This document shows, in pieces, positions 3,826 through 45,754 of a stretch of 64,000 nt of DNA. How positions within the stretch are numbered: the first letter of the stretch is position 1; every line of letters begins with the position of its first letter. Both the position numbers and the translations under genes were made by a program. The stretch is from the NCBI RefSeq assembly GCF_041886205.1, contig NZ_CP169029.1. One strand, written 5' to 3'. This DNA is from Escherichia coli. Its GTDB lineage: Bacteria > Pseudomonadota > Gammaproteobacteria > Enterobacterales > Enterobacteriaceae. A model generated the notes under the pieces. That model had not been told where the DNA came from, made no database searches, and saw nothing but the letters and a program-made list of their open reading frames with translations.

Positions 3826-4143
3826 TTATTCTATTTCTTGGTTGAATATATTCTGTAGTTCACGATTAAAAATTGCTATTACAGTTTCAGGTGATTCACC
3901 TCGTAATTTCCGCTCATCAATACACTCATCTCTTATATAAATCAACGCATCATTTATTAGCGGGTCAGCATCTTCTCGATCACGTTGATGAAATGTTGGA
4001 TGTAGCCGGAATCGCTCCAGTCGATAGACGGAACCTGTAAATAATTCAGAGCATTTATGGATCTCAAGTCTGAAGGAAAACGGATCTTCAGGTACAGGGA
4101 CCTCATAATCGTAAATAGCAACCAGCTCTTTTTGCACGATCAT
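3826..4143 (-). CDS. yehK: YehK, small uncharacterised protein (105 aa)
   Basis: ORF of the expected size and position, directly downstream of yehI. Confidence 0.8.
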   Translation of the reverse strand: MIVQKELVAIYDYEVPVPEDPFSFRLEIHKCSELFTGSVYRLERFRLHPTFHQRDREDADPLINDALIYIRDECIDERKLRGESPETVIAIFNRELQNIFNQEIE

Positions 4144-4202
4144 CGCTTTCCCGTTGGTAAGTCGTGTTGAAAACGGGCAGTCGCATCACTGCCCGTTGTG
4201 TT

Positions 4203-7200
4203 TTAATGGAAAATGACGTCGGGTGCGCTTAACGCCTCACTCAAATCAAACACATCAAGTGCGGCAAAAGTGACGGATTTATTGTCACGGTACACCCGAA
4301 GAGAACGGAAGCTCATCAGCGCTTTGCTATCAGCACTGTAGTAGTTAAAACCGGGTGAAAACTTAAGGACCAGCCGGTACTCACCTAAGTCATAGACAAA
4401 TGCGTCCTCATAGCCTGACTCCCAGCCTTTGTATCGCATTCCCATAAGCTGCCCAACGGTAGCGGATTTACCTTCCCAGCGAGTCAGGCTGTTACTGGTT
4501 GACTCGTCAGGTGTGAGCAGCACCGTGCGGCGCGACAACTGGCGAAAAGGCGGCATAATTTCGTAATCGGCAAAAAGCTGTGCAAATTCACTGCGCATTT
4601 CTGCTGTCATTTCTAACGGGTGGGCAATGCCAATCAGAGCGTCCGCAGGCAGGTCAATGGGCTCATCTTGTGCATTGCAGAATTCCCCCTCTGCGGCCAC
4701 ACGAAAGGTGTTGAGTAAACGACGTGGTTCATTTGCCGGATAAACCCCCCATATTAATCGCTGGGTAACCAGGCGGGTAAAGGGATGATTAACAAAAAGA
4801 GAATGAAAATCTGCCAGCGACCAGCGTCGGGTGGTGCGTAGGGCAGTTTCAAGACGCGGGAGCAGGTTTTTGCTCACCTGAGTGGCATCTTTTTTTAGCC
4901 CTTTTAGTCGGGCCAGTGCCTCGGGCGCTTTCAGTTGATCGTCATCGGCGCGCAACCGGGGAACACTTTTCTGGCGAACGTTTTGTTGATCGTAGATAAC
5001 CGGGTTGAGGTTTTCATCGAAGCGAACGGTAAACTGCCGGGGACCAAAATCAAAAATCAACGCCTGCGGATCATCAAGACCCAGTGTTGGGACTAATCTG
5101 TCCGCTAACTCTTCCTGGCTTAGCCCGCGATTTTCTGCGACCACCTGAAGAAATTCCGCTGCGTTTTCACGTAATGAAGAGGATTTCGCCCGTTGTGATA
5201 CATGATGCAGCTGTATCAGCGCCATATCATTATTCATCAGGGTGAGTATATTCAGACCACTGACAGCACGGGCAGATTTGCCTTCTTGTGGCCAAGCGAG
5301 GATCTGTGTTGTTAGATCCCGTGCCGTGCTTTCGTCACCAAAGAGACTTAACGCCAGAAATGCCCAGTTGTCTTTTGCGGGGGCACCAGCTTGTTGCCAT
5401 GCGGTGAAGAGATCCCAGGCAAAAGCTGCCAGCGTTTGCGGCTGGCAGAACGTTTTCAGTTGTTCCAGCCCGCTATAAAAACGTCCCCCTTGGGTAAAGC
5501 GCAGCATTTCGCCAATAATTTCCAGAGCGTCATCGGTAACAGGTTGATTATTAGTGATAAGGCGCGGCCTGGACCACATTTGCGGATGCCAGAAATCAGG
5601 GGCTTTTGGAATGCGTGCCGGGTAAATCTCTATTGGACTCTGTTTAAGTAATTGTTCCAGGGCAGGCCATACATCAGCGCGATCCCAGCGGTTTGCCACG
5701 GTTTGTAGTAATACGCCATGTCCCTGTTCGTAAAGTAAACGCAGGGCAAGTAATGCAGCTTCGCTATTATCGCTGGATTTAGTGAAGACAAGAGGGATAA
5801 GTGCAGTAGCCGTATGTTCCGGCCATTGTAAAATCCACTGGCGAGCCAGATCACGCTGCGCCGCGAAACGTCGCCAGACGCGGGCAACAGGCAGCGCCAG
5901 TTCTGTTGCGCCGAAATGAATCAGCAGCGGAAATATCTCTTGTGGATGTCGGGCAAAGGCGGTGTTTAATCCAGGCAAAGCATCGGTAGCCAGCACACTT
6001 AACAGATATTCCACCCCAGTGTAATGAAAATCAGCATCGACAATTTGTTGCCAGCACGATACCGCCATTTCGCGCGGCATCTGCGCGATAAGGTACAGAT
6101 TCCAAATCCCCCAACGCTTTTCATTACCATAGTAAAATTCGTGCTGAAAAGTTCGCCACCCTTCCATCAACGCAATGCAATCTTGTGCCAGTAATGCTTT
6201 GGTGGCTTCTTCACGATACTGTTTAGATTTGGCCTGATGCGCGTGATAAGTACGCAATAGTCCTATTGATGTGTATTCTTGCAGTTGCTGAGCATCAAAG
6301 GCATCCAACTGTCCATTAAGAAGATGCTTATTAAATTCCAGGCTATGAACGTCAAAACCTAATTCCCGCAAGAAGGTATCCGCCCCTCTCTTAGCAATAC
6401 GTTCGTCAAAAGACATGGCGCTAAAATGGTCAATTGCAGTTTGCTGTTCCGGCGTCCAGTGTTTATTCGGCGACCTGTACGTTTGCGGTGCAAGCGTAAG
6501 ATCAGGCAGCGAAAAGTGAGGTATGGAAGTCTTTTTCTTCCTCCCACGCCATGGTGGTGAAACGAGGATTTCAGGCATTTGGCTGTTATCGGTACTATCA
6601 ATAACCGGTTTGGGCGGTGCCAATAAATAACTATTCAGTACTGCCCGGGCTTGAGTACTTAACCACTGCATCACCTCTTCTGCCAGTTGTGGCTGCGATG
6701 CCATCAGCGTTTGTAACAGCGTACGCCAGTATTCATCTCGAGCTTTTTGCTGGGCAGGCAGCTTTTTGTCTTCGATGATTGGATAACCAGGGCGGGCTGG
6801 TGGTTCTTTTAACGCCAACAGTTCTGCCAGTGCCGCGAGCGTCGCGTGGGGGAAGTTTTTACTGTATTTAGCCACACGTTGCAGGCTGGGTTTGTTTTTA
6901 TCAGCCACCAGTAGCAAGGTGCGGATGACCTGCGGATGGTTAATTTGTACCAACAGACTGCCGCAATCTTCTTTATGGGCATACATCGCGAGGCGCGGAA
7001 TGGCTGCCAGTCCTTGTTCGCGCAAAAGGGCGGCGCAGGCCGCGTAGCCGAAGTGGTTTTCATGCGACATGTAGCTGGCTTCGCGATCGCTAAATATATC
7101 CTGACTCCAGTAGTGATCGAGTTTCCTCACCGCTGTGGGGTCATTAGCAACAACTTTTAGCCACTCCTTAGAATGATAATGAGTCCGTGGGCATTCAAGG

Positions 7201-11630: not shown

Positions 11631-14600
11631 TTAATCAAACAGTGATTCAATATCGTTAATCAGCTCGCTGGCGGTGATGTCGTCGAGCACGGAGAAGGGA
11701 TAAACCGATTTGCGCGGCGTCAGTTTGCACAACTGAATGTGCTCAATTTTTTGGCTATCGCTGATTTCGGTGACGGGCAATCCAACGCAGAAGCCTGGTG
11801 TCACACTCAGTTCGACGTAGCCATCATCCACAGATTTATAAAATGAGTAATAGCCGCCACCATCCAGCACATCGCCCCGTTGCCAGCCTTTATTCATCAG
11901 CCCGGCGACGCGCCCACTCGCTGCCTGGCGACCAGCCCAGCGCTGCAAATCGCTGCTGCTTTTTTCTGTCTCAGAGAGCTGAGACCAGGGGCGATCAAGT
12001 TGACTGAATGGTGGCAATAGTTCGTAGTCAGAGAACAGTTGTGCAAATTCAGCAGCCTGCGGGGCCGGGATTTCCAGTACATGCGGGATACCGATACTGC
12101 CCTGCGCAAGGGTTAACGGGTTATCCTGACCGTCGCTAAAACTGCCATCCTCCGCCACGCGGAAACAGGAAATAAGCTGATTATCAGCGTCATAAATGCC
12201 CCACATCAGACGTTGGGTGATATGACGAACCAGGGGATGCTCAACCAGAAACAGGCGGAACTGTTCTGCAGTCCAGCGGCGACGCTGACACATGGCGGCT
12301 TCCAGACGCGAAATCTGTTGTGCAGCTACCGTGCGGACATCTTTTTTCAACAACTTGTAGCGATTTACCGCTTCCTCAGCCAGCGTTTCATCATCGCTTT
12401 TGTTCGGTTTGGGCAGATCTTTCAGACGGTTGCCGGAAGCTTCGCGCACAAACGGTTTTAAGGATTCATCAAAGCTGACGGTGAACAGGCGTGGGCCGAA
12501 ATCCAGCAGTAGTGAGCCGTTATCATCCAGACCGAGATCGGGGGCTAACCGGTCTTCCATCTCTGCGACGGTGAGCTGGCGGCTTTCGGCAATCTGGGCG
12601 ATTTTAGTTCTAGCCTGATCCTGCAAGGCTTTAAATTTTAGCTTTTGCGCAATACCGTTAAGTTGCATCAGGGCGATATCGCTGCCGATAGCAGCAAGAA
12701 TATCCAGCCCGACAGTGGCGCGTTTATGCTGAGATTCCCCCGGCCATGCGCGGATGAGCGGGGTGAGTTTGCGGGCGGTGTCATCGTTACCCAGAATCCC
12801 CAGTGCGGTAAATGCCCAGTTATCTTTGGCTGACCCGCTTGCAATCTCCCAGCTCAAGAAGAGATCCCAGGCGAAATCGGCAAGAGACTGCGGGGTACAG
12901 GCCTCGATTACCTGTGTTATCCCCGGGTAAAGGGTGGCTTCGCGGGGAAAAGAGAGCATGGTGCACAGTTGCAGGATAGCTGAATCCGGAAGTGCCTTGC
13001 CGTTACTGCGCAGAAGCGGGCGGTGCCATACTTCAGGGGTACACCAGGCGGGGAGTTTAGCGATTTTCTGCGGAAAATTATCGAGGGGGTCGCTGTTAAG
13101 AACATCTAACAAACCCGTAAGCACTTCTGCCTGATTATAGCGGTGGGCAATTTCTTCCATTAACGGCTGATGCCCATGATGAGCCAGATAGCGAATTGCC
13201 GTAGCGGCGTCTTCACGCTCACTACCTGCTTTTCCCAGCACGGAAGGCAGCAGGCCCGTAATGGCATGTTCCGGATAGGTTAACAACCAACGTTCAGCAA
13301 CATCACGTACAGATTTAAGCTGACGAAAGGCGCGAGCCATTAAGGGGGCTACTTCGGTTGCGCCAAAACGTGCCGCTAAAGGAATGGCTTCCTGAGGTAC
13401 GACTAAGGCGCGACGCAGCAAGCCGGGCAATGTCGGAAGACCGTAATATTCCACTACTTCACATGCGTTAATCAGATGTAGGTGAGTCAGTGCGTTCCAT
13501 ATTTTCAGTGCTTTATTTTCTGATAACTGAAGCAATACCGACACATTGACAAGGATATGACTTGCCCACCGAGGTTTATCCCAGATCTTTAATAAAGCTT
13601 CGTAATTGTCCTGCTCGAAAAAATCAATGGCAGCCTGAGGTATACCCCAACCAAGCTCTTCGCAATGGAAGTTCAACAAATCCAGGATATCTTTCGCTGA
13701 TGGGGATGGCGCAGATGGCTCAGTCAGATTTTTTGTTGCGGGGATAGATTCAGGGGGGGAAGAGGTAATACCCGGAGAGTGAGGTTGATACCAGCAATCT
13801 TTTTCTTTTTTTCCAACCATGAAGGGGCGATCAATATACTGGGTAATTCATTCTTATGAGCAATTTTTTCGATGGACATAAGCTGAGGAAAATAACTAAA
13901 TAAAATTTGTTGCTGTTTTTCGTCAAGCCAGGGAAGCGTTTTATGTAAGGCTTGCGCATTACCCAAGATGATGCGCTGCAGTAAACGATAATAGTGAGAG
14001 TTATTTGTGTAATTTAAGGCTTTTGTTAATGCATAAAGTGCAGCTTCAGGATGTAAATTTGTTGCGTGTTCCACTTCACTGATACATTCTTCTTTTATTA
14101 ATATATTAATGGCGTCAGGATGATTAACTTGTGTAATTAGATTTTTAACTGAATAACTATCCTTTATCCATGGCTGAAGAAGTGGAAGAGCTTTTACCCC
14201 TCGTTCACGCAGTAATGTCGCAGTGCATTTTTCCGCCGTCTGCCAGTCGTTATAGCGCTTAAGTTGGTTAAGATTCATCAATTCATTGAGTGCCTGCGGA
14301 TCTGTGGCAACGATATCCAACCATTCCATTTCTGGGTAATTAGCACATTGCACTAAGTCAAAGACAATTTGATTAGCAATTTCAGGTTGTTCAGGCAAAA
14401 GAAAACCTATTAAAGGGCGTTTACGTGGAGACAGGGAAGGCAACGCTTGAGTAAGCTTTTTCATGCACCGTTGCCATGTTTTTTCATCAATACGCGAGAG
14501 ATGATTTCGCAAGTGAAAATCTACAGTGCTGAAGCCGAATTCAAAACGTTGTTCTGATATTGTGTTACTTAGAATAAGCGTTGGTACGCAATTTTTTGTA

Positions 14601-15370
14601 AAAAAATTGTATCCCATGCGAACATACAAAAGGCATTTATCTAAAGCTTCACAATTTCCCGGATCTTGATTTTGATCATCTGATATCTGAATTTGCTGTA
14701 ATAGCAAGACTAATTCGGTCGCGTATTCTACCCCATGCTGTTGCGCCAGATAATCAAAAAGATCATTAGCGCTATCGCTATCTTGCATAAGAAACTTGAC
14801 CAGCAAAAAGAATGCATTGGAGAAAATCGAACCGTCTATATTTTTCTGCTGAACGCGCATGATTGCTTCATCCCGGCCTCGTTGCCATTCCGGGCGGCAG
14901 TCACTCACATCAAAATGCTGTAATTGTGCAAGAAAATAGTATTCCTCATATTTGTTTTCCCATAAGAGTGACCATAACGAGATATCTTTAGCAAACGTCC
15001 TGACACTGTCGGCTGGGAATTTCCTACTGCTAAATACTCTCTTTGTTTCGAGAATGATTGGTTCAAGGTCCGCAATCCACGGTGGTGTGTCGACATCAGT
15101 AATAATTGGATGTTGTTCGCTATCATCAGCTGTGGTGGGAACAGTTATCAGCATGTTTATATCGTCAGTCGATTTTACATACCCCTTCTTCACCTTCTCC
15201 GCAATCAACTTCAGCTCCGCTTTTTCCGCCGTTGCAGCATCCGCAAAACTTTTTACCTGGCTTTGCCCTTGGGTGCCAACTTTTCCCCAACTGATATGCA
15301 ACTCGTTTCCCTGTTGCTCCACCGCCCAGAATTTATGTGATTTTTCGTCCTGATAGATAAAGCGTCTCAT
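11631..15370 (-). pseudogene. Second MolR paralog (WGR + DUF4132), split into 548-aa and 729-aa ORFs by a frameshift
   Basis: ORF 13724..15370 starts MRRFIYQDEKSHKFWAVEQQGNELHISWGKVG. ORF 11631..13820 continues colinear with molR. The two frames overlap at 13724..13820, which contains a G7 tract (13753..13759) and a T6 tract (13729..13734). Confidence 0.8.
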
Positions 15371-17675: not shown

Positions 17676-18785
17676 ATGAACGAACAATCCCAGGCCAAAT
17701 CACCAGAAGCCTTGCGCGCAATGGTCGCCGGGACACTGGCCAATTTTCAGCACCCAACCCTGAAGCATAACCTCACCACGCTGAAAGCGTTGCACCATGT
17801 CGCCTGGATGGACGACACGTTGCATGTGGAACTGGTTATGCCATTCGTCTGGCATAGCGCGTTTGAAGAGTTAAAAGAGCAATGTAGCGCCGAACTGCTG
17901 CGTATCACCGGGGCGAAAGCTATCGACTGGAAACTGTCGCACAATATCGCCACCTTAAAACGCGTGAAGAATCAGCCGGGTATTAATGGCGTGAAGAACA
18001 TCATTGCGGTCAGTTCCGGTAAAGGCGGCGTGGGTAAATCCTCCACGGCGGTAAACCTGGCGCTGGCACTGGCGGCGGAAGGGGCGAAAGTCGGCATTCT
18101 GGACGCCGATATCTACGGCCCATCAATTCCCACCATGCTGGGCGCAGAAAATCAGCGTCCAACTTCGCCGGACGGTACCCATATGGCACCGATTATGTCT
18201 CATGGCCTGGCAACCAATTCAATTGGTTATCTGGTCACTGACGACAATGCGATGGTGTGGCGTGGACCGATGGCGAGCAAGGCGTTAATGCAGATGTTGC
18301 AGGAAACCTTGTGGCCGGATCTGGACTATCTGGTACTCGACATGCCGCCAGGAACCGGTGACATTCAGCTGACGCTGGCGCAGAACATTCCGGTGACTGG
18401 TGCGGTAGTGGTCACCACCCCGCAGGACATCGCGCTGATCGATGCGAAAAAAGGCATTGTGATGTTCGAGAAAGTCGAAGTTCCGGTGCTCGGTATTGTC
18501 GAGAACATGAGTGTGCATATTTGCAGTAACTGTGGTCACCATGAACCGATTTTCGGTACCGGTGGTGCAGAGAAACTGGCTGAAAAATACCACACACAGC
18601 TGCTGGGGCAGATGCCGTTACACATCTCCTTACGTGAGGATCTCGATAAAGGCACGCCAACGGTTATCAGCCGTCCGGAGAGCGAATTTACCGCTATCTA
18701 TCGCCAGCTGGCTGACCGCGTTGCAGCTCAGCTCTACTGGCAGGGTGAAGTCATTCCCGGCGAGATTTCCTTCCGCGCGGTCTAA
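17676..18785 (+). CDS. apbC: Fe-S cluster carrier ATPase Mrp/ApbC
   Basis: Start MNEQSQAKSPEAL; P-loop SSGKGGVGKSS; CxxC motif (CSNCGHH). Confidence 0.95.
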   Translation: MNEQSQAKSPEALRAMVAGTLANFQHPTLKHNLTTLKALHHVAWMDDTLHVELVMPFVWHSAFEELKEQCSAELLRITGAKAIDWKLSHNIATLKRVKNQPGINGVKNIIAVSSGKGGVGKSSTAVNLALALAAEGAKVGILDADIYGPSIPTMLGAENQRPTSPDGTHMAPIMSHGLATNSIGYLVTDDNAMVWRGPMASKALMQMLQETLWPDLDYLVLDMPPGTGDIQLTLAQNIPVTGAVVVTTPQDIALIDAKKGIVMFEKVEVPVLGIVENMSVHICSNCGHHEPIFGTGGAEKLAEKYHTQLLGQMPLHISLREDLDKGTPTVISRPESEFTAIYRQLADRVAAQLYWQGEVIPGEISFRAV

Positions 18786-18814
18786 CGCCTATTAACCATT
18801 CTGGTTATTTTTCA

Positions 18815-18856
18815 TACACCGCAGAGATGTTACATTGATGCGGTGTATTTGTTTTT
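18815..18856 (+). terminator. Rho-independent terminator after apbC
   Basis: Hairpin acaccgca...tgcggtgt followed by tttgttttt. Confidence 0.55.
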
Positions 18857-19047
18857 GCCGCATTAATGAACACTTATTTAATACTGCGAATATTCTGCGG
18901 ACCTTCGTCCGAAACTCTACAAAGTCGATTGATCGTACAGGCAATGCTTCATTATCATCCTTCGTGGCTGTGTAGTGGATGTACAGCTATAGTTTGTTAT
19001 GCACTCATTCTATCCAGGCATAACCTTTACTACAGGGATAACGTTCA

Positions 19048-19329
19048 ATGAATAAGTATTGGCTGTCAGGAATTATTTTTCTTGCCTATGGATTGGCTTC
19101 TCCCGCATTCTCTTCACAGACTGCCACATTATCGATTAATGGCAGGATCAGTCCCCTAACATGCAGTATGACTATGGTTAATAGTCAACCTCAACAGCAT
19201 TGTGGTCAGTTAACGTATAATGTCGATACCCGTCATCAGGTTTCTTCGCCCGTCAAAGGTGTAAAGACAGAAGTGGTTGTTGCAGGTAGTGATAGCAAAC
19301 GTCGAATCGTGTTAAATCGATACGATTAA
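19048..19329 (+). CDS. yehE: YehE, small secreted protein (93 aa)
   Basis: ORF with a signal-peptide-like N-terminus, positioned before yehD. Confidence 0.8.
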   Translation: MNKYWLSGIIFLAYGLASPAFSSQTATLSINGRISPLTCSMTMVNSQPQQHCGQLTYNVDTRHQVSSPVKGVKTEVVVAGSDSKRRIVLNRYD

Positions 19330-19360
19330 TTTGGCAACCTGATTTTAATTGCATTTAGAA

Positions 19361-19399
19361 AGCCGAAATCATTTATATAAATGATTTCGGCTTTTTTTA
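19361..19399 (+). terminator. Rho-independent terminator after yehE
   Basis: Palindrome agccgaaatcatttatataaatgatttcggc followed by ttttttt. Confidence 0.7.
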
Positions 19400-19622
19400 T
19401 TGATATCAATAATACCATTTACATAAATCTACATTAATTAATAGATGCGATAAATATTTAATACTCTTAAGTATTTGTTGTATTTATATTGCATTGGTTA
19501 ATTTGTTTTAAATCAATAAAACAATATGTTTACATTGCGGCAACTTTTTTGATGTGAGAAATTTGTTTCCAAGAGATACAGACTCTTAACAACCAAAAAT
19601 AAATTTTATTAAGGAACATATT

Positions 19623-20165
19623 ATGAAACGTTCAATTATTGCTGCCGCTGTCTTTTCTTCTTTTTTTATGAGCGCTGGAGTATTTGCTGCAGACGTTGAT
19701 ACCGGAACATTAACCATTAAAGGAAATATTGCAGAATCTCCGTGTAAATTCGAAGCGGGTGGTGATTCAGTAAGTATTAATATGCCGACTGTACCAACCA
19801 CTGTCTTTGAAGGTAAAGCTAAATATTCTACCTATGATGATGCAGTCGGTGTAACCAGCAGCATGTTAAAAATTAGCTGCCCGAAAGAAGTTGCTGGTGT
19901 AAAACTCTCGTTGATTACCAACGATAAAATAACTGGTAACGATAAGGCGATAGCCAGTAGCAACGATACCGTGGGGTACTATCTCTATTTAGGTGATAAC
20001 AGCGATATCCTGGATATTTCTGCACCTTTTAACATTGAGAGTTATAAAACAGCGGAAGGTCAATATGCTATTCCGTTTAAAGCAAAATACCTGAAACTGA
20101 CAGATAACTCAGTGCAATCAGGTGATGTGTTATCTTCTCTGGTTATGCGTGTGGCGCAGGATTAA
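19623..20165 (+). CDS. yehD: Fimbrial major subunit (chaperone-usher pathway)
   Basis: 180-aa ORF with signal peptide and fimbrin-like composition; first gene of the yehDCBA order. Confidence 0.9.
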   Translation: MKRSIIAAAVFSSFFMSAGVFAADVDTGTLTIKGNIAESPCKFEAGGDSVSINMPTVPTTVFEGKAKYSTYDDAVGVTSSMLKISCPKEVAGVKLSLITNDKITGNDKAIASSNDTVGYYLYLGDNSDILDISAPFNIESYKTAEGQYAIPFKAKYLKLTDNSVQSGDVLSSLVMRVAQD

Positions 20166-20246
20166 TAAATAAAAATTGCAAGTTTCTCCAGGTAATAAAC
20201 ATGGCCGCTATCCCCATGGCGGCTTTTTAATTTAAGAGGCATTAAG

Positions 20247-20921
20247 ATGAAAGGATTATTATCTTTACTCATTTTTTCTATGGTCCTTCCTGCGCATGCC
20301 GGAATTGTTATCTACGGGACGCGCATTATTTACCCGGCAGAAAATAAAGAAGTGATGGTGCAGTTGATGAACCAGGGAAACCGTTCTTCGCTGCTGCAGG
20401 CGTGGATTGATGATGGCGATACGTCGTTACCACCAGAAAAAATTCAGGTTCCTTTCATGTTAACGCCACCAGTGGCAAAAATAGGGGCAAATTCCGGGCA
20501 GCAAGTAAAAATCAAAATTATGCCGAATAAACTGCCCACTAATAAAGAAAGCATTTTTTATCTGAATGTTCTGGATATTCCACCAAATAGTCCAGAACAA
20601 GAAGGTAAGAATGCACTGAAGTTTGCGATGCAAAACAAAATCAAATTGTTTTACCGGCCGGCGGGTATTGCTCCGGTAAATAAAGCGACCTTTAAAAAGT
20701 TACTGGTAAATCGCAGTGGCAATGGATTGGTGATAAAAAATGACTCAGCTAATTGGGTGACGATTTCGGATGTCAAAGCTAATAATGTCAAAGTCAATTA
20801 TGAAACTATTATGATTGCCCCCTTAGAAAGTCAGAGTGTTAATGTCAGAAGTAATAATGCAAATAACTGGTATCTGACCATTATCGATGACCACGGTAAC
20901 TATATTAGTGACAAAATTTAA
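20247..20921 (+). CDS. yehC: Periplasmic fimbrial chaperone (PapD-like)
   Basis: Signal peptide followed by a chaperone-like N-terminal region (GIVIYGTRIIYPAENKEVMVQLMNQG). Confidence 0.9.
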   Translation: MKGLLSLLIFSMVLPAHAGIVIYGTRIIYPAENKEVMVQLMNQGNRSSLLQAWIDDGDTSLPPEKIQVPFMLTPPVAKIGANSGQQVKIKIMPNKLPTNKESIFYLNVLDIPPNSPEQEGKNALKFAMQNKIKLFYRPAGIAPVNKATFKKLLVNRSGNGLVIKNDSANWVTISDVKANNVKVNYETIMIAPLESQSVNVRSNNANNWYLTIIDDHGNYISDKI

Positions 20922-40909: not shown

Positions 40910-41689
40910 ATGACGATGAATTCATTCGAGCGAAGGAATAAGATCATCCAATTAGTGAATGAACAGGGAACCGTGCTTGTTCAGGATCTGGCGGGAGTAT
41001 TTGCTGCCTCGGAAGCGACAATCCGTGCCGATTTGCGCTTTCTCGAACAAAAAGGCGTGGTTACGCGCTTTCATGGCGGTGCGGCGAAAATAATGTCTGG
41101 TAATAGTGAAACCGAGACCCAGGAAGTCGGGTTTAAAGAGCGATTTCAGCTCGCCAGCGCGCCAAAAAACAGAATAGCGCAGGCGGCAGTCAAAATGATC
41201 CACGAAGGGATGACCGTTATTCTCGACAGCGGAAGTACGACAATGCTTATCGCCGAAGGATTAATGACCGCCAAAAATATCACGGTGATTACCAACAGTC
41301 TCCCGGCAGCGTTTGCCCTTTCCGAAAATAAAGACATTACTCTGGTCGTCTGTGGTGGCACGGTCCGCCATAAAACGCGCTCGATGCATGGTTCCATTGC
41401 CGAGCGTTCATTACAGGATATTAATGCCGATTTAATGTTTGTCGGTGCTGATGGTATTGATGCGGTTAATGGTATTACGACCTTTAATGAAGGTTATTCT
41501 ATTAGCGGTGCGATGGTCACAGCCGCTAATAAAGTGATTGCCGTTCTCGATTCATCGAAATTTAACCGTCGCGGTTTTAATCAGGTACTACCAATCGAAA
41601 AAATTGACATTATTATTACCGATGATGCTGTGTCAGAGGTGGATAAACTGGCATTGCAGAAGACGCGGGTAAAATTAATTACGGTGTAG
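40910..41689 (+). CDS. gatR: DeoR-family repressor of the gat operon, intact
   Basis: 259-aa uninterrupted ORF with an N-terminal HTH region. To my recollection it is IS-disrupted in K-12 but not here. Confidence 0.85.
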   Translation: MTMNSFERRNKIIQLVNEQGTVLVQDLAGVFAASEATIRADLRFLEQKGVVTRFHGGAAKIMSGNSETETQEVGFKERFQLASAPKNRIAQAAVKMIHEGMTVILDSGSTTMLIAEGLMTAKNITVITNSLPAAFALSENKDITLVVCGGTVRHKTRSMHGSIAERSLQDINADLMFVGADGIDAVNGITTFNEGYSISGAMVTAANKVIAVLDSSKFNRRGFNQVLPIEKIDIIITDDAVSEVDKLALQKTRVKLITV

Positions 41690-41700
41690 TATTGTTCTGT

Positions 41701-41734
41701 ATGCCGGATAAGGTGTTTACACCGCATCCGGCAT
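41701..41734. repeat. REP element
   Basis: atgccggataaggtgtttacaccgcatccggcat palindrome after gatR. Confidence 0.65.
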
Positions 41735-41770
41735 TACGGATTCTCCCTGGTTCAAGAGAGAATAGTTTGA

Positions 41771-42670
41771 TTAACGCAACAGTGGACAATCTGGTGGTAA
41801 TCGACAACGCAACGCTGCCGGAAGTATTTCAATATGAAAATTTTGCCCACTCAACGGTTCGCCATCAAGATTAAAGGTGATGTCGTGTGGTGCCTGAATA
41901 TCAAACCACGACGAAGCGCCTTCGATAATATTCGGGTTATCTTCGTCAGATTTTAAGGTTGATACGAGAGCCGGAAGTATTTCATCGCCGGTAAAAATGC
42001 GCAGTTGCAGCAAGCCATCGTTAATTAACGCGTTCGGACACAATTGCTGACCGCCACCGGCCTGACGCCCGTTACCAATACCAATGACCAGGGCGTCACC
42101 TTGCCAGTGAAAGTTTTCACCGCGGATTTCACAACGGTCCGGTTGCAGAGTATCCATACGCATTAAGCCATGAATGATGTAAGAGACGCTACCCAGCGCG
42201 GCTTTTAATTTTTCCGGCGTTTCTGTGGTAATACGCGTCCCAAATCCGCCTGTCGCCATATTAATAAAACAGGTTTGTTTGTTGACCTGCGCCATATCTA
42301 TCGCAATGGCGTCACCGGCAATTGCCAGTTTCAGCGCCTTATCCAGTGCCTCAGGAATCCCTACACTGGTGGCAAAATCATTGGCGGTTCCTAATGGCAA
42401 AATTCCCAGCGCGGGTATGTCATCCCCCTCACACTGAATCAACGCCGTAGAAACTTCATTAATGGTGCCATCGCCACCACCGGCAATCACCGTTGCGACG
42501 CCCAACTTCCGGGCCTCCTCTACATATCGTGCGGCATCGCCTTTCTCCCAGGTGACCCGCACATGGATCGTCATTCCTTCCTCACGCAACAGCATAATTG
42601 CTTCGCGCAAGGGTAGATTGTCAGTACTTTTGCCATTAAGAATCAGTAAGCTGGCGGGAAATTCTGCCAT
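41771..42670 (-). CDS. yegS: Lipid kinase YegS (diacylglycerol kinase catalytic domain family)
   Basis: 299-aa ORF with the GGDGT motif. Confidence 0.9.
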
Positions 42671-43075
42671 GATCGTATGTGCCTTTATGATTGGTCTGTA
42701 GATAGTGTAGAGCAGAAAACAAAAGGTGGAGTCAGAACAGGATGAAAGTCGGAGGATAAAAAGTCAGTTCAAGTATGGAGGATTCAGTGGTTACCACCAG
42801 GAGCTTGCAATGGGGACAGCGAATACTAACGGCTGCCACCGATAAATTTCAAAAAAGAGCATATACCTAATATTCAACTAAACAGTGGCATCTTCAATAT
42901 AATATATTAAAGCCCCCATGGAGTTACCCTGAAGGGCCTCAATGTCCGTAATTCCTACTTATGTAGGAAATGTTGTACAGAACATTTATTATAATCCTAT
43001 TCAATTATAATAATCATGCCATTATTATATTTAAACACTAGAGAGTGTCGTTGGTATTTAATGGGGGAAGGTGAG

Positions 43076-43393
43076 ATGAAAAAGATAGCTGCTATATCAT
43101 TAATTAGTATTTTTATTATGTCTGGTTGTGCTGTGCATAATGATGAGACAAGTATCGGTAAATTTGGTCTTGCATATAAAAGTAATATTCAGCGTAAACT
43201 CGATAACCAATACTACACCGAAGCCGAAGCTTCTTTAGCCAGGGGTAGAATATCTGGTGCAGAAAATATAGTAAAAAATGATGCAACTCATTTCTGTGTT
43301 ACTCAGGGCAAAAAAATGCAAATAGTTGAGCTGAAGACAGAAGGTGTAGGATTACATGGTGTCGCTCGTCTGACATTCAAATGTGGAGAGTGA
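43076..43393 (+). CDS. yegR: Small predicted lipoprotein YegR
   Basis: MKKIAAISLISIFIMSGCAV (lipobox); AT-rich gene; about 105 aa. Confidence 0.8.
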   Translation: MKKIAAISLISIFIMSGCAVHNDETSIGKFGLAYKSNIQRKLDNQYYTEAEASLARGRISGAENIVKNDATHFCVTQGKKMQIVELKTEGVGLHGVARLTFKCGE

Positions 43394-43552
43394 GAATATT
43401 TTTTGGTAAGCGTCAAATATGCGCGTTCTGGCTGTGCGTAGCCGGAACCTGTGGGAGCACGATGCCGATAAGTGAAAGGCATCGTGCTATGAAGGAGGAT
43501 TCTATCGATGTGGTCAATGGAAGACGGTTACCAGAGATAGGGCTTATGCATA

Positions 43553-43639
43553 AAAAAATAAGCCCGTGTAAGGGAGATTACACAGGCTAAGGAGGTGGTT
43601 CCTGGTACAGCTAGCATTTTATGGGTTATGTTTTTCAGC
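43553..43639 (-). ncRNA. cyaR: CyaR (RyeE) Hfq-dependent sRNA
   Basis: Minus-strand sequence GCTGAAAAACATAACCCATAAAATGCTAGCTGTACCAGGAACCACCTCCTTAGCCTGTGTAATCTCCCTTACACGGGCTTATTTTTT, recognised from memory, including the terminator hairpin. Confidence 0.85.
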
Positions 43640-43723
43640 GAAACGGATGATAACCTTAATAAATGCAGCTGTATGTGATCGGTTTCTAAGAATTTTCCAT
43701 CCGGGAAAAATAATCGAAATTAA

Positions 43724-45085
43724 TCACTTACCGTGTGGGTTACGCGTGGTTTCCCCGGAGAAATTACGCATCAGCAGAGCGTAATTGAGCTCAAGATCCT
43801 GCGGGACCGGGAGCCACACAGTATAACCATCGCCTGGTGCGACCGGCATCGCTTCACCTTTGGCGTTTTCCATGTGCTCAAGGGTAAAGTTAATGTTGCC
43901 TTGCGGCGTCATCAGCTCAAGGCTGTCGCCAACGGAGAATTTATTTTTCACCGCTACCGCCGCGAGGTCCCCCTTGCGCTCACCGGTAAACTCACCAACA
44001 AACTGCTGGCGGTCAGAAACTGAATAACCGTATTCGTAGTTCTGATAATCGTCGTGAGTATGACGACGCAGGAAACCTTCGGTATAGCCACGATGCGCCA
44101 GACCTTCCAGAGTTTCCAGCAGGCTGGTATCGAACGGTTTGCCCGCAGCGGCGTCATCGATAGCTTTACGGTAAACCTGTGCGGTGCGTGCGCAATAGTA
44201 GAAAGATTTAGTACGGCCTTCGATTTTCAGCGAATGCACGCCCATTTTGGTCAGGCGTTCTACATGGGCGATGGCGCGCAGATCTTTCGAGTTCATGATG
44301 TAAGTGCCGTGCTCATCTTCAAACGCGGTCATATACTCGCCCGGACGCTGGGCTTCTTCGATCATAAACACTTTGTCGGTTGGCGCGCCGATACCCAGCG
44401 TCGGCTCAACATTTTGCACCGGAATCGGCTCGTACTTGTGTACGATGTTGCCAACGTCATCTTCTTTCCCTTCCTGGACGTTGTACTCCCAGCGGCAGGC
44501 GTTGGTGCAGGTACCCTGGTTCGGATCGCGCTTGTTGATATAGCCAGAGAGCAGGCAGCGACCGGAGTAGGCCATGCACAGTGCGCCGTGAACGAAGATC
44601 TCGATCTCCATATCCGGCACCTGATTGCGGATCTCTTCAATCTCTTCCAGCGACAGCTCGCGAGAGAGGATCACGCGGGTCAGGCCCATTTGCTGCCAGA
44701 ATTTCACCGTCGCCCAGTTTACGGCGTTAGCCTGCACCGAGAGGTGGATCGGCATTTCAGGGAAGTGCTCACGCACCAGCATAATCAGCCCTGGATCGGA
44801 CATAATCAGCGCATCCGGCCCCATTTCCACCACCGGTTTCAGGTCACGGATAAAGGTTTTCAGCTTGGCGTTGTGCGGTGCAATGTTGACCACGACATAA
44901 AACTTTTTCCCCAGCGCGTGGGCTTCATTGATGCCGAGCTGAAGATTTTCGTGGTTGAATTCGTTGTTGCGCACACGCAGGGAGTAACGCGGCTGGCCCG
45001 CATAAACAGCATCTGCGCCATAAGCGAAAGCGTAACGCATATTTTTCAGCGTTCCCGCCGGGGAAAGGAGTTCCGGTTTAAACAT
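43724..45085 (-). CDS. yegQ: Peptidase U32-family protein (tRNA hydroxylation factor TrhP/YegQ)
   Basis: 453-aa ORF MFKPELLSPAGTLKNMRYAFAYGADAVYAGQPRYSLR. Confidence 0.9.
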   Translation of the reverse strand: MFKPELLSPAGTLKNMRYAFAYGADAVYAGQPRYSLRVRNNEFNHENLQLGINEAHALGKKFYVVVNIAPHNAKLKTFIRDLKPVVEMGPDALIMSDPGLIMLVREHFPEMPIHLSVQANAVNWATVKFWQQMGLTRVILSRELSLEEIEEIRNQVPDMEIEIFVHGALCMAYSGRCLLSGYINKRDPNQGTCTNACRWEYNVQEGKEDDVGNIVHKYEPIPVQNVEPTLGIGAPTDKVFMIEEAQRPGEYMTAFEDEHGTYIMNSKDLRAIAHVERLTKMGVHSLKIEGRTKSFYYCARTAQVYRKAIDDAAAGKPFDTSLLETLEGLAHRGYTEGFLRRHTHDDYQNYEYGYSVSDRQQFVGEFTGERKGDLAAVAVKNKFSVGDSLELMTPQGNINFTLEHMENAKGEAMPVAPGDGYTVWLPVPQDLELNYALLMRNFSGETTRNPHGK

Positions 45086-45231: not shown

Positions 45232-45564
45232 TTACGTATTGTCTTTCACCGTCTGGCTTGTGCCATTGGCTTTAACGGAGGCAATTCCGGTTTCACGAGA
45301 TTGCGCGGTGGCGTACATCTGGCTGGAGCCGATAATTTGATGATTAGCGGCTTTCAGATTGAAATAGAATTTGCCGTTACTTGCCGTTTTTTTCTCATAG
45401 CGTTCTTCTTGCGGGCTGTTGCTACGCACCGACGCGATGCCCTTTTCCGCAGAGGCTTTTGAGGTATAAAGCTCGCTGGTGAGGATAGTCTCACCATTGC
45501 CCGCTTTTAGCACAAACCGGAACTGATTATCACTGCTCTTACTGAGTTCAAACCAACCAGCCAT
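45232..45564 (-). CDS. yegP: YegP, tandem DUF1508 (UPF0339) protein
   Basis: Start MAGWFELSKSSDNQFRFVLKAGNGE; two internal repeats of about 50 aa. Confidence 0.85.
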   Translation of the reverse strand: MAGWFELSKSSDNQFRFVLKAGNGETILTSELYTSKASAEKGIASVRSNSPQEERYEKKTASNGKFYFNLKAANHQIIGSSQMYATAQSRETGIASVKANGTSQTVKDNT

Positions 45565-45754
45565 AATGACTCCTTGATTGAAATTGTGTATCGAAAACAG
45601 CATCTAAAGGTGCTGTTTACCGATTAAAGTATGAGCGATTTTCTGATGCCTGCCAGGGCGGAGAGATAATGTCAGTTTGCTGACCATGCGTGGGATAATG
45701 TTGCCGGATCTGGTCTGAACGCCATCTCCGGCTAACAAAATAATGTCGCTAAAA

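Follow-up and report, generated by a model that had tools for sequence, protein, structure and literature searches.

The DNA analysed here, called the window throughout, is a 64,000-nucleotide stretch of an Escherichia coli genome. Within it, the conserved left flank of the locus was formed by the lipid kinase gene yegS (41771-42670, minus strand), a 299-aa ORF carrying the same name in the RefSeq annotation of identical DNA. A spacer of 405 bp with 38.0% G+C separated yegS from yegR (43076-43393, plus strand; stop codon 43391-43393), which encodes 105 aa with a lipoprotein signal and the lipobox MSGC, and which RefSeq names 'protein YegR' on identical DNA. The small RNA gene cyaR (RyeE) followed at 43553-43639 on the minus strand, as placed by mapping the 87-nt ncRNA annotation of MG1655. 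The conserved right flank was yegQ/trhP (43724-45085, minus strand; a 453-aa ORF, supported by annotation), a gene that adjoins cyaR across Enterobacterales. The non-coding gap from the yegR stop codon to the CyaR 3' end measured 159 nt, in agreement with the initial annotation of this DNA, which had put the stop (43393) about 160 bp from the end of cyaR (about 43553). Between yegR and cyaR, ORF inspection and tblastn revealed neither ogrK nor yegZ, and no int, ogr or D gene. A perfect 11-bp inverted repeat (AGCACGATGCC ... GGCATCGTGCT; 43456-43488, plus strand) was present downstream of yegR. It had no T-run, and the terminator search made no call there.

The identity of cyaR was clear from a match to the Rfam family RF00112 (CyaR_RyeE) at 43556-43641 on the minus strand, which scored 100.7 bits against a gathering score of 47 and covered model positions 1-85 of 85. 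The gene ended in a rho-independent terminator, with an 11-pair stem (43588-43561) followed by the U-tail TATTTTTTTA. Upstream of the RNA 5' end, we read from the sequence a -10 hexamer, TATCAT (43647-43652), and a CRP-like site, TGTGA-N6-TCTAA (43674-43689), the centre of which lay about 42.5 bp from the annotated start. The corresponding TTAGA...TCACA motif was also conserved upstream of cyaR in Klebsiella-like loci. The title of Papenfort 2008 describes CyaR as a CRP-dependent sRNA.

The last 27 nucleotides of cyaR (43553-43579; AAAAAATAAGCCCGTGTAAGGGAGATT on the plus strand), comprising the 3' half of the terminator and the U-tail, were identical at 27/27 positions to the annotated attP, or Int core-binding site, of phage P2 (AF063097, 24356-24382). 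No other intact copy was found in the window. In P2, attP is surrounded on one side by ogr, its terminator, the Int P arm and an IHF site, and on the other by the Cox site, the P' arm and int. In the window, host DNA continued on both sides of the single full-identity core. In occupied genomes, the left piece of host DNA stopped at 43579 and the right piece began at 43553, and the integrase, repressor C and Cox genes (int-C-cox) of P2-like prophages lay directly after the core in E. coli B, in an O157:H7 strain and in the human isolate 720632. The window site is thus an unoccupied attB as regards modern P2-like phages. We take it to be locI, which is the integration site favoured by P2 and was described in E. 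coli C. Studies by Yu et al. in 1989 and by Barreiro and Haggard-Ljungquist in 1992 are said to describe locI. The window agreed with locI in having the same 27-bp core as attP, without a single difference, at the same place (the cyaR 3' end, between yegR and yegQ). It differed in that a P-arm-like sequence was additionally seen on the yegR side.

These observations fix the point of P2 integration in this strain to 27 bases within the CyaR terminator. The initial annotation had proposed looking for attachment-like repeats at 43400-43550, to the left of where the site proved to be. Because the bacterial core is identical to that of attP, integration duplicates it and cyaR stays complete. The CRP-like site and the -10 hexamer lie upstream of the RNA 5' end and far from the core, and the promoter is therefore likewise unaffected by an integrated phage. 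The initial annotation had named the CyaR promoter context alongside the integration site, but integration at 43553-43579 does not reach the promoter region (43640-43723). Occupancy alters neither the sequence of CyaR nor its promoter.

The interval between cyaR and yegS differed among genera. Two Klebsiella-like loci (L015 and L020) had the order baeS-baeR-yegQ-cyaR-yegS without yegR, and the distance between the CyaR U-tail and the start codon of yegS was only 70-85 bp. The same gene order without yegR was found in another enterobacterial genome, reached through YegQ, and the cyaR-yegS interval of Citrobacter amalonaticus likewise lacked yegR. In Salmonella the interval held a different island, consisting of sseK2, a CesT-like gene and a 111-aa ORF; the literature searched contained no published link between this island and cyaR. 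One Escherichia-like genome (L028), by inference probably E. albertii, had a YegS 91% identical to that of the window, with cdtABC adjoining yegS. Homology between the regions upstream of yegS in E. coli and in the Klebsiella-like loci was not statistically detectable (40/500 shuffles in the best case).

The right end of the yegR segment resembled a phage attachment arm. The sequence directly to the left of the core (43504-43552, plus strand) was P-arm-like, with the first Int arm repeat, TGTGGTCA, intact at 43509-43516. Within it, 43504-43539 (TCGATGTGGTCAATGGAAGACGGTTACCAGAGATA) aligned with a stretch of P2 (TCGATGTGGTCAATGTGTGGACGTGACCAGAAATA) that is annotated as the P-arm binding site of Int and continues into the beginning of the IHF region. 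The alignment contained an exact run of 15 nt and scored 38, compared with 17.1 ± 2.1 for dinucleotide shuffles, none of which reached 38 (0/500). Both the side and the orientation of the match were those of the P arm in attR. A divergent Escherichia genome (L007) had a longer P-arm/IHF-like stretch beside its core, and in Salmonella a P-arm-like stretch extended up to the core (score 32 versus 19.2 ± 2.5; 0/500 shuffles). The spacers of the Klebsiella-like loci and of Citrobacter, used as negative controls, showed nothing collinear with the P arm.

The left end was more decayed. The first 87 nt upstream of yegS (42671-42757) may represent the ancestral upstream segment of this gene, the 'B arm' of the original site. 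It was about 93% identical to the divergent Escherichia genome L007, and beyond it identity dropped to about 55%. Its right-hand 65 nt or so matched by eye the 87 nt between yegS and the attL core of the E. albertii-like genome, although the ungapped count, which runs out of register, gave 22/87. Immediately after this segment we found a degenerate core copy at 42758-42784 (plus strand), an attL-like scar that matched 18 of 27 positions in the orientation of the true core. Only two matches at the 18/27 level occurred among 128,000 window positions, one of them being that at 42758, and 10/1000 shuffles of the spacer reached 18. A P'-arm-like sequence followed at 42785-42814 (plus strand), matching 19/30 of the P2 bases after the core when a 1-nt deletion was allowed, a level reached at 3.1e-5 of window positions.

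Taken as one 57-mer, core plus P' found its best match in the window at the scar (37/57, against 35/57 at the real core; z ~6.9), with the 1-nt deletion chosen post hoc, and a free local alignment settled on this diagonal too. Without the deletion, the best match other than the core itself was 31/57 at 42757, one base off. The ungapped identity scans used here are suited to similarity of about 65%. Local alignment (+2/-3) of the yegS-yegR spacer with the core missed the second copy, as did a repeat finder. With an identity to attP of only about 65%, the left scar is weak when considered alone.

Other genomes added to the case for the left scar, which we compared in a five-way alignment that included P2 attP, the attL of E. 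coli B and the attL of L028. Of seven further E. coli loci, six (L001, L002, L003, L006, L013 and L014) carried the scar with 17-19/27 core and 19-20/30 P' matches. For the seventh (L012), the ungapped comparison gave 13/27 and 17/30, having been thrown out of register by a 1-nt indel. The divergent genome L007 had its own 18/27 core copy at the aligned place, and at 10 of the 11 positions at which the two copies differed, one genome or the other carried the P2 base. The E. albertii-like genome had a core copy matching at 22/27, and behind it a P' arm of the P2 type that was nearly intact. This core copy lay 87 nt from the yegS start codon, which is exactly the offset of the scar in the window.

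The cyaR 3' end carries an empty P2 attB, and these features taken together suggest that the adjoining yegR segment (about 42758-43552) is the relic of an older integration by a P2-type element; to this reading as a whole we assign a probability of roughly 0.8. The layout is that expected of an integrated element. Direct core repeats lie at 42758 (18/27) and 43553 (27/27), the left one degenerate, and the arms occur in prophage order, with a P'-like sequence inside the left repeat (42785-42814) and a P-like sequence inside the right one (43504-43539). A junction of the uninterrupted, ancestral type also exists, in the Klebsiella-like loci where cyaR is 70-85 bp from yegS. A tblastn search of the segment with P2 proteins for Int, Ogr and D remnants gave only noise. 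As no phage gene was recognised inside the segment, the claim is limited to a probable remnant of a P2-type integration event, and 'prophage' would be too strong a term.

The strongest competing explanation is that attB is virgin, that the core and arm similarities (42758-42814 and 43504-43539) are due to chance or base composition, and that yegR arrived in a way unrelated to P2-type integration. In its favour, a second core copy did not reach significance in a standard local alignment, and the island holds no phage genes. The relatives of yegR elsewhere are also not phage-associated and sit among ordinary chromosomal genes. However, chance does not readily account for a best 57-mer match exactly where an attL is predicted, nor for a less decayed attL at the identical yegS offset in the E. 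albertii-like genome. The decay in L007, independent of that in E. coli yet complementary to it, also argues against chance, as does a P-arm match with a 15-nt exact run that no shuffle equalled and that is absent where there is no island. We therefore consider a virgin attB unlikely, and prefer the relic of an older integration.

The base composition of the yegR segment bears on its origin. The region 42671-43400 had a G+C content of 37.1%, compared with 50.7% for the window, and the flanking genes yegS and yegQ had 49.8% and 54.3%. Only 1.3% of 730-bp windows within the 64 kb were equally AT-rich. The initial annotation had already described the region as markedly AT-rich relative to its flanks and had suggested older, horizontally acquired DNA of the H-NS type. 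The comparison of genera supports this suggestion, as the segment is missing in the Klebsiella-like and Citrobacter loci and replaced by another island in Salmonella. YegR relatives at other loci and on plasmids, together with a published H-NS mark in the spacer, support it further. The AT-rich composition could instead reflect a regulatory intergenic region plus a small gene, with no foreign origin. Promoter-rich spacers are generally AT-rich and several promoter-like sites were detected here. Nonetheless, the yegR coding sequence itself has only 36.5% G+C, other genera lack the entire segment in this interval, and the segment diverges far faster than its flanks, so this explanation is very improbable. 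The segment is best regarded as a candidate for horizontally acquired, H-NS-type DNA, a view supported by the sequence comparisons.

The distribution of YegR relatives was scattered. Close relatives (82-83% aa identity) occurred in three other Enterobacteriaceae, where the neighbours were genes for a glutaminase, a GNAT acetyltransferase, a nitroreductase and Ivy. No cyaR, yegS, yegQ or mobile-element genes were found near these close relatives in the three genera. More distant relatives, at 46-47% identity, were found on about 89 enterobacterial plasmids. On the one plasmid inspected, an IncFIB plasmid of Klebsiella pneumoniae, the yegR relative lay between IS elements. A search of Pfam assigned the YegR protein to no family, and NCBIfam gave only sub-threshold matches to signal peptides. 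YegR has been detected as a lipoprotein in an O157:H7 proteome.

The spacer upstream of yegR contained candidate regulatory sites. The palindrome TTCCTACTTATGTAGGAA (42952-42969), read from the sequence of the yegR promoter, is a candidate EvgA box, a type of site that takes the form of an 18-bp inverted repeat. Its half-sites, TTCCTAC and GTAGGAA, were conserved in L007, while its centre and surroundings had diverged. A review lists the yegR promoter among those bound by EvgA. In a published table of constitutive promoters, the spacer between yegR and yegS carries the label 'HNS', with the hexamers TAAACA-18-TATATT and TTTAAA-17-TATTAT, which we located in the window at 42879-42908 (plus strand) and 43035-43007 (minus strand). 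The EvgA-type palindrome and the H-NS site reported in the spacer suggest that yegR may now be a host-regulated gene for a small lipoprotein. The segment resembles H-NS-bound, AT-rich xenogeneic islands in its low G+C content, patchy occurrence, fast divergence and reported H-NS site. It differs from them in that yegR is reported to be EvgA-activated, and silencing by H-NS at this locus is putative.

The comparison with K-12 showed what a younger remnant at this site looks like. The order in MG1655 is cyaR (2167114-2167200), the 'cryptic prophage PR-X' (2167183-2167811, 629 bp, with ogrK and the pseudogene yegZ), yegR and yegS. This matches the statement in the initial annotation that K-12 carries ogrK and yegZ between cyaR and yegR. 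Its observation that the window lacks them was equally correct. In a K-12-lineage genome, the window sequence from 42400 to 44000 (1601 bases) was matched at 100% in two pieces, with a 629-bp insert between them that is missing from the window. The insert carried ogrK and a D-gene fragment. Base-by-base extension showed the left flank to be identical up to 43570 and the right flank from 43553, so that the insert is bounded by an 18-bp repeat of the core (AAAAAATAAGCCCGTGTA), the copy adjoining cyaR being intact. PR-X is the right end (D'-ogr-P arm-core) of a P2-like prophage. What removed the rest was a deletion extending from within the left core copy to a point inside gene D. The window itself is not from K-12, as gatR (40910-41689) was intact in it and is split by IS3E in MG1655.

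The uninterrupted junction, 161 bp long, was found in 4207 of 5426 complete E. coli genomes. The K-12-type core/D' junction occurred in 356 of the 5426, and about 860 showed another state, which proved to be a P2-like prophage in each of the three inspected (3/3). The empty site is thus the norm in E. coli and PR-X is the exception. The proposal that the window descends from a K-12-like ancestor from which PR-X was later removed, for instance through recombination of the 18-bp repeats, is hardly tenable; although the flanks are 100% identical to the K-12-lineage genome over 1601 bases and such direct repeats could support a deletion, the uninterrupted junction occurs in 4207 genomes across the 95-100% identity classes against 356 of the K-12 type, site-specific excision is impossible for a PR-X without integrase and with a truncated left core, and gatR is intact in the window and IS3-disrupted in K-12. 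The description of the site as 'unoccupied' thus stands in part. The window has no PR-X and only a single intact core, but the yegR segment carries att-like scars of what would be an older integration.

The P2 remnant of K-12 at this site was reportedly described in 1992. An empty P2 site at cyaR, and its occupation by PR-X in K-12, are already known biology, cyaR having been published as a P2 integration site. In the E. coli W genome paper, Table 2 gives 'cyaR RNA' as the place of insertion of a P2-type prophage in W, 'ogr-D'' in K-12 and 'P2*B' in B, with none in Crooks (PMC3032704). Bobay et al. also treated ryeE of E. coli as an already known phage target (PMC3603311). The population frequencies of the empty, K-12-type and otherwise occupied states are now given as well.

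A probable history of the locus can be proposed from these comparisons. An ancestral cyaR-yegS junction of the Klebsiella-like type would have received a P2-type element by site-specific integration. The integrated element would later have been reduced to less than 800 bp, with its left core free to decay. The right core was probably retained owing to its role as the CyaR terminator, and it would now serve as attB for modern P2-like phages. The attB of modern P2 would then be the attR of the old relic. At this site, P2 integrase would recombine the attB core with the identical attP core, placing the prophage between yegR and cyaR. The core would be duplicated in the process and cyaR rebuilt intact at the ogr-side junction. 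K-12 would, in this history, hold relics of two generations side by side. PR-X and the proposed yegR relic share their site and orientation, and PR-X has a truncated left core copy. They differ in that the arms of PR-X are nearly 100% P2-like, whereas the yegR relic would be older, with arms of about 65% identity and no recognisable phage gene. The yegR gene itself may have been phage cargo, or may have arrived later in an existing relic by another route.

Prophages are known to use the 3' ends of tRNA, tmRNA and sRNA genes, as in ryeB/SdsR of Salmonella and rybB of E. coli, where the phage copy of the gene end restores the RNA gene. Such sites become hotspots that gather islands, and cyaR does not differ in principle. 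Its putative relic islands vary between lineages, with yegR in E. coli, sseK2 in Salmonella and cdtABC in the E. albertii-like genome. A broader proposal is that P2-type elements have hit the cyaR 3' end repeatedly in both Escherichia and Salmonella, leaving the yegR, sseK2, cdtABC and PR-X islands, that attB is the attR of the oldest relic, and that the arm-type Int-binding repeat TGTGGTCA beside it may aid the strong preference of P2 for this site over secondary ones. We regard this extended version as doubtful, if conceivable, and offer it as a tentative idea.

If the yegR segment is indeed such a relic, the origin of the orphan yegR gene and of its AT-rich promoter, putatively controlled by EvgA and H-NS, would be explained. 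It would also mean that one phage site linked to an sRNA has seeded different small islands in different lineages, including effector and toxin islands. The decayed att arms bounding the yegR segment, and the relic islands proposed for Salmonella and the E. albertii-like genome, appear to be undocumented in the literature searched, and the 1989 and 1992 papers on P2 att may already note arm homology at locI.

Searches of phage sequences for yegR returned host DNA. No relative was found in true phage genomes, and the two phage-database records that matched both contained host DNA. In IMG/VR, all 80 matching loci (80/80) shared at least 95% identity with E. coli yegR and lay at a contig end. In 74 of the 80, the core was followed by the P' arm, which indicates prophage calls that overshoot into host DNA. 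Automated prophage callers, as well as the two GenBank 'phage' records, included yegR or other host DNA at the junction. Prophage calls at the cyaR junction can thus take in the host gene yegR, and annotations made from them should be read with this in mind.

In the Escherichia-like contig L028 (Logan SRR10749232; 142-2617), cdtA-cdtB-cdtC adjoined yegS, and an attL lay between yegS and the toxin genes. This attL consisted of a 22/27 copy of the P2 attachment core and a near-intact P2-type P' arm, and its offset from yegS, 87 nt, equalled that of the scar in the window, a degenerate attL-like core copy at 42758-42784. We infer only tentatively that the contig comes from E. albertii. In Salmonella enterica (CP019409.1; locus L024, 981-4000), the cyaR-yegS interval carried sseK2, of the SseK_NleB family, together with a CesT-like gene and an ORF of 111 aa. 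The cyaR core of this locus was directly adjoined by sequence resembling the P arm of P2 (score 32 versus 19.2 ± 2.5, 0 of 500 shuffles). The Salmonella locus showed no attL-like copy in the vicinity of yegS. The P-arm-like sequence beside the core suggests that the sseK2 island is another P2-type relic.

Automated P2-like prophage calls at the cyaR site usually started at yegR (IMG/VR, L029-L108), and the core was followed by the P' arm in 74 of the 80 IMG/VR loci. Host DNA was also present inside two GenBank "phage" records, ON470606.1 and AY639599.1, with gatR-yegS-yegR in one and the K-12 region of PR-X, the 629-bp cryptic prophage remnant, in the other. The presence of yegR or other host DNA in such calls and records is an artefact of boundary overshoot. 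About 89 plasmids from Klebsiella, Enterobacter, Citrobacter and E. coli, the majority of them conjugative, also carried relatives of YegR at 46-47% identity. In the single plasmid inspected, K. pneumoniae p1 (NZ_CP065832.1; locus L023), the relative at 3986-4306 was flanked by IS3, IS630 and IS26 elements.

The yegS-yegQ stretch of the window was 100% identical to a K-12-lineage genome. In K-12 MG1655, gatR is split by IS3E, whereas the window carries an intact 259-aa ORF (40910-41689); the window is therefore not K-12. One genome, E. coli H32 (NZ_CM184319.1), had an IS1A insertion within the region matching 42400-44000. Only 166-318 bp separated baeR from yegQ in the Klebsiella-like and Citrobacter loci (L015 2683-3000, L026 2078-2243), with no called gene between them. 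Given this short gap and the lack of a called gene in it, yegP (window 45232-45603) seems to be a further lineage-restricted small gene of this neighbourhood.

Downstream of yegR, two perfectly matching 11-bp arms enclosing a loop of 11 nt formed an inverted repeat (43456-43488), which lacked a T-run and lay 16 nt ahead of the P-arm-like sequence. The gatR-yegS spacer contained a REP-like hairpin (41702-41737), which partially matched Rfam naRNA4 at 36.1 bits, below the gathering score of 59.5. Further AT-rich troughs, with 730-bp windows below 40% G+C, were found elsewhere in the window at about 13400-15100, 18700-21300 and 23750-25400, reaching a minimum of 32.9%.
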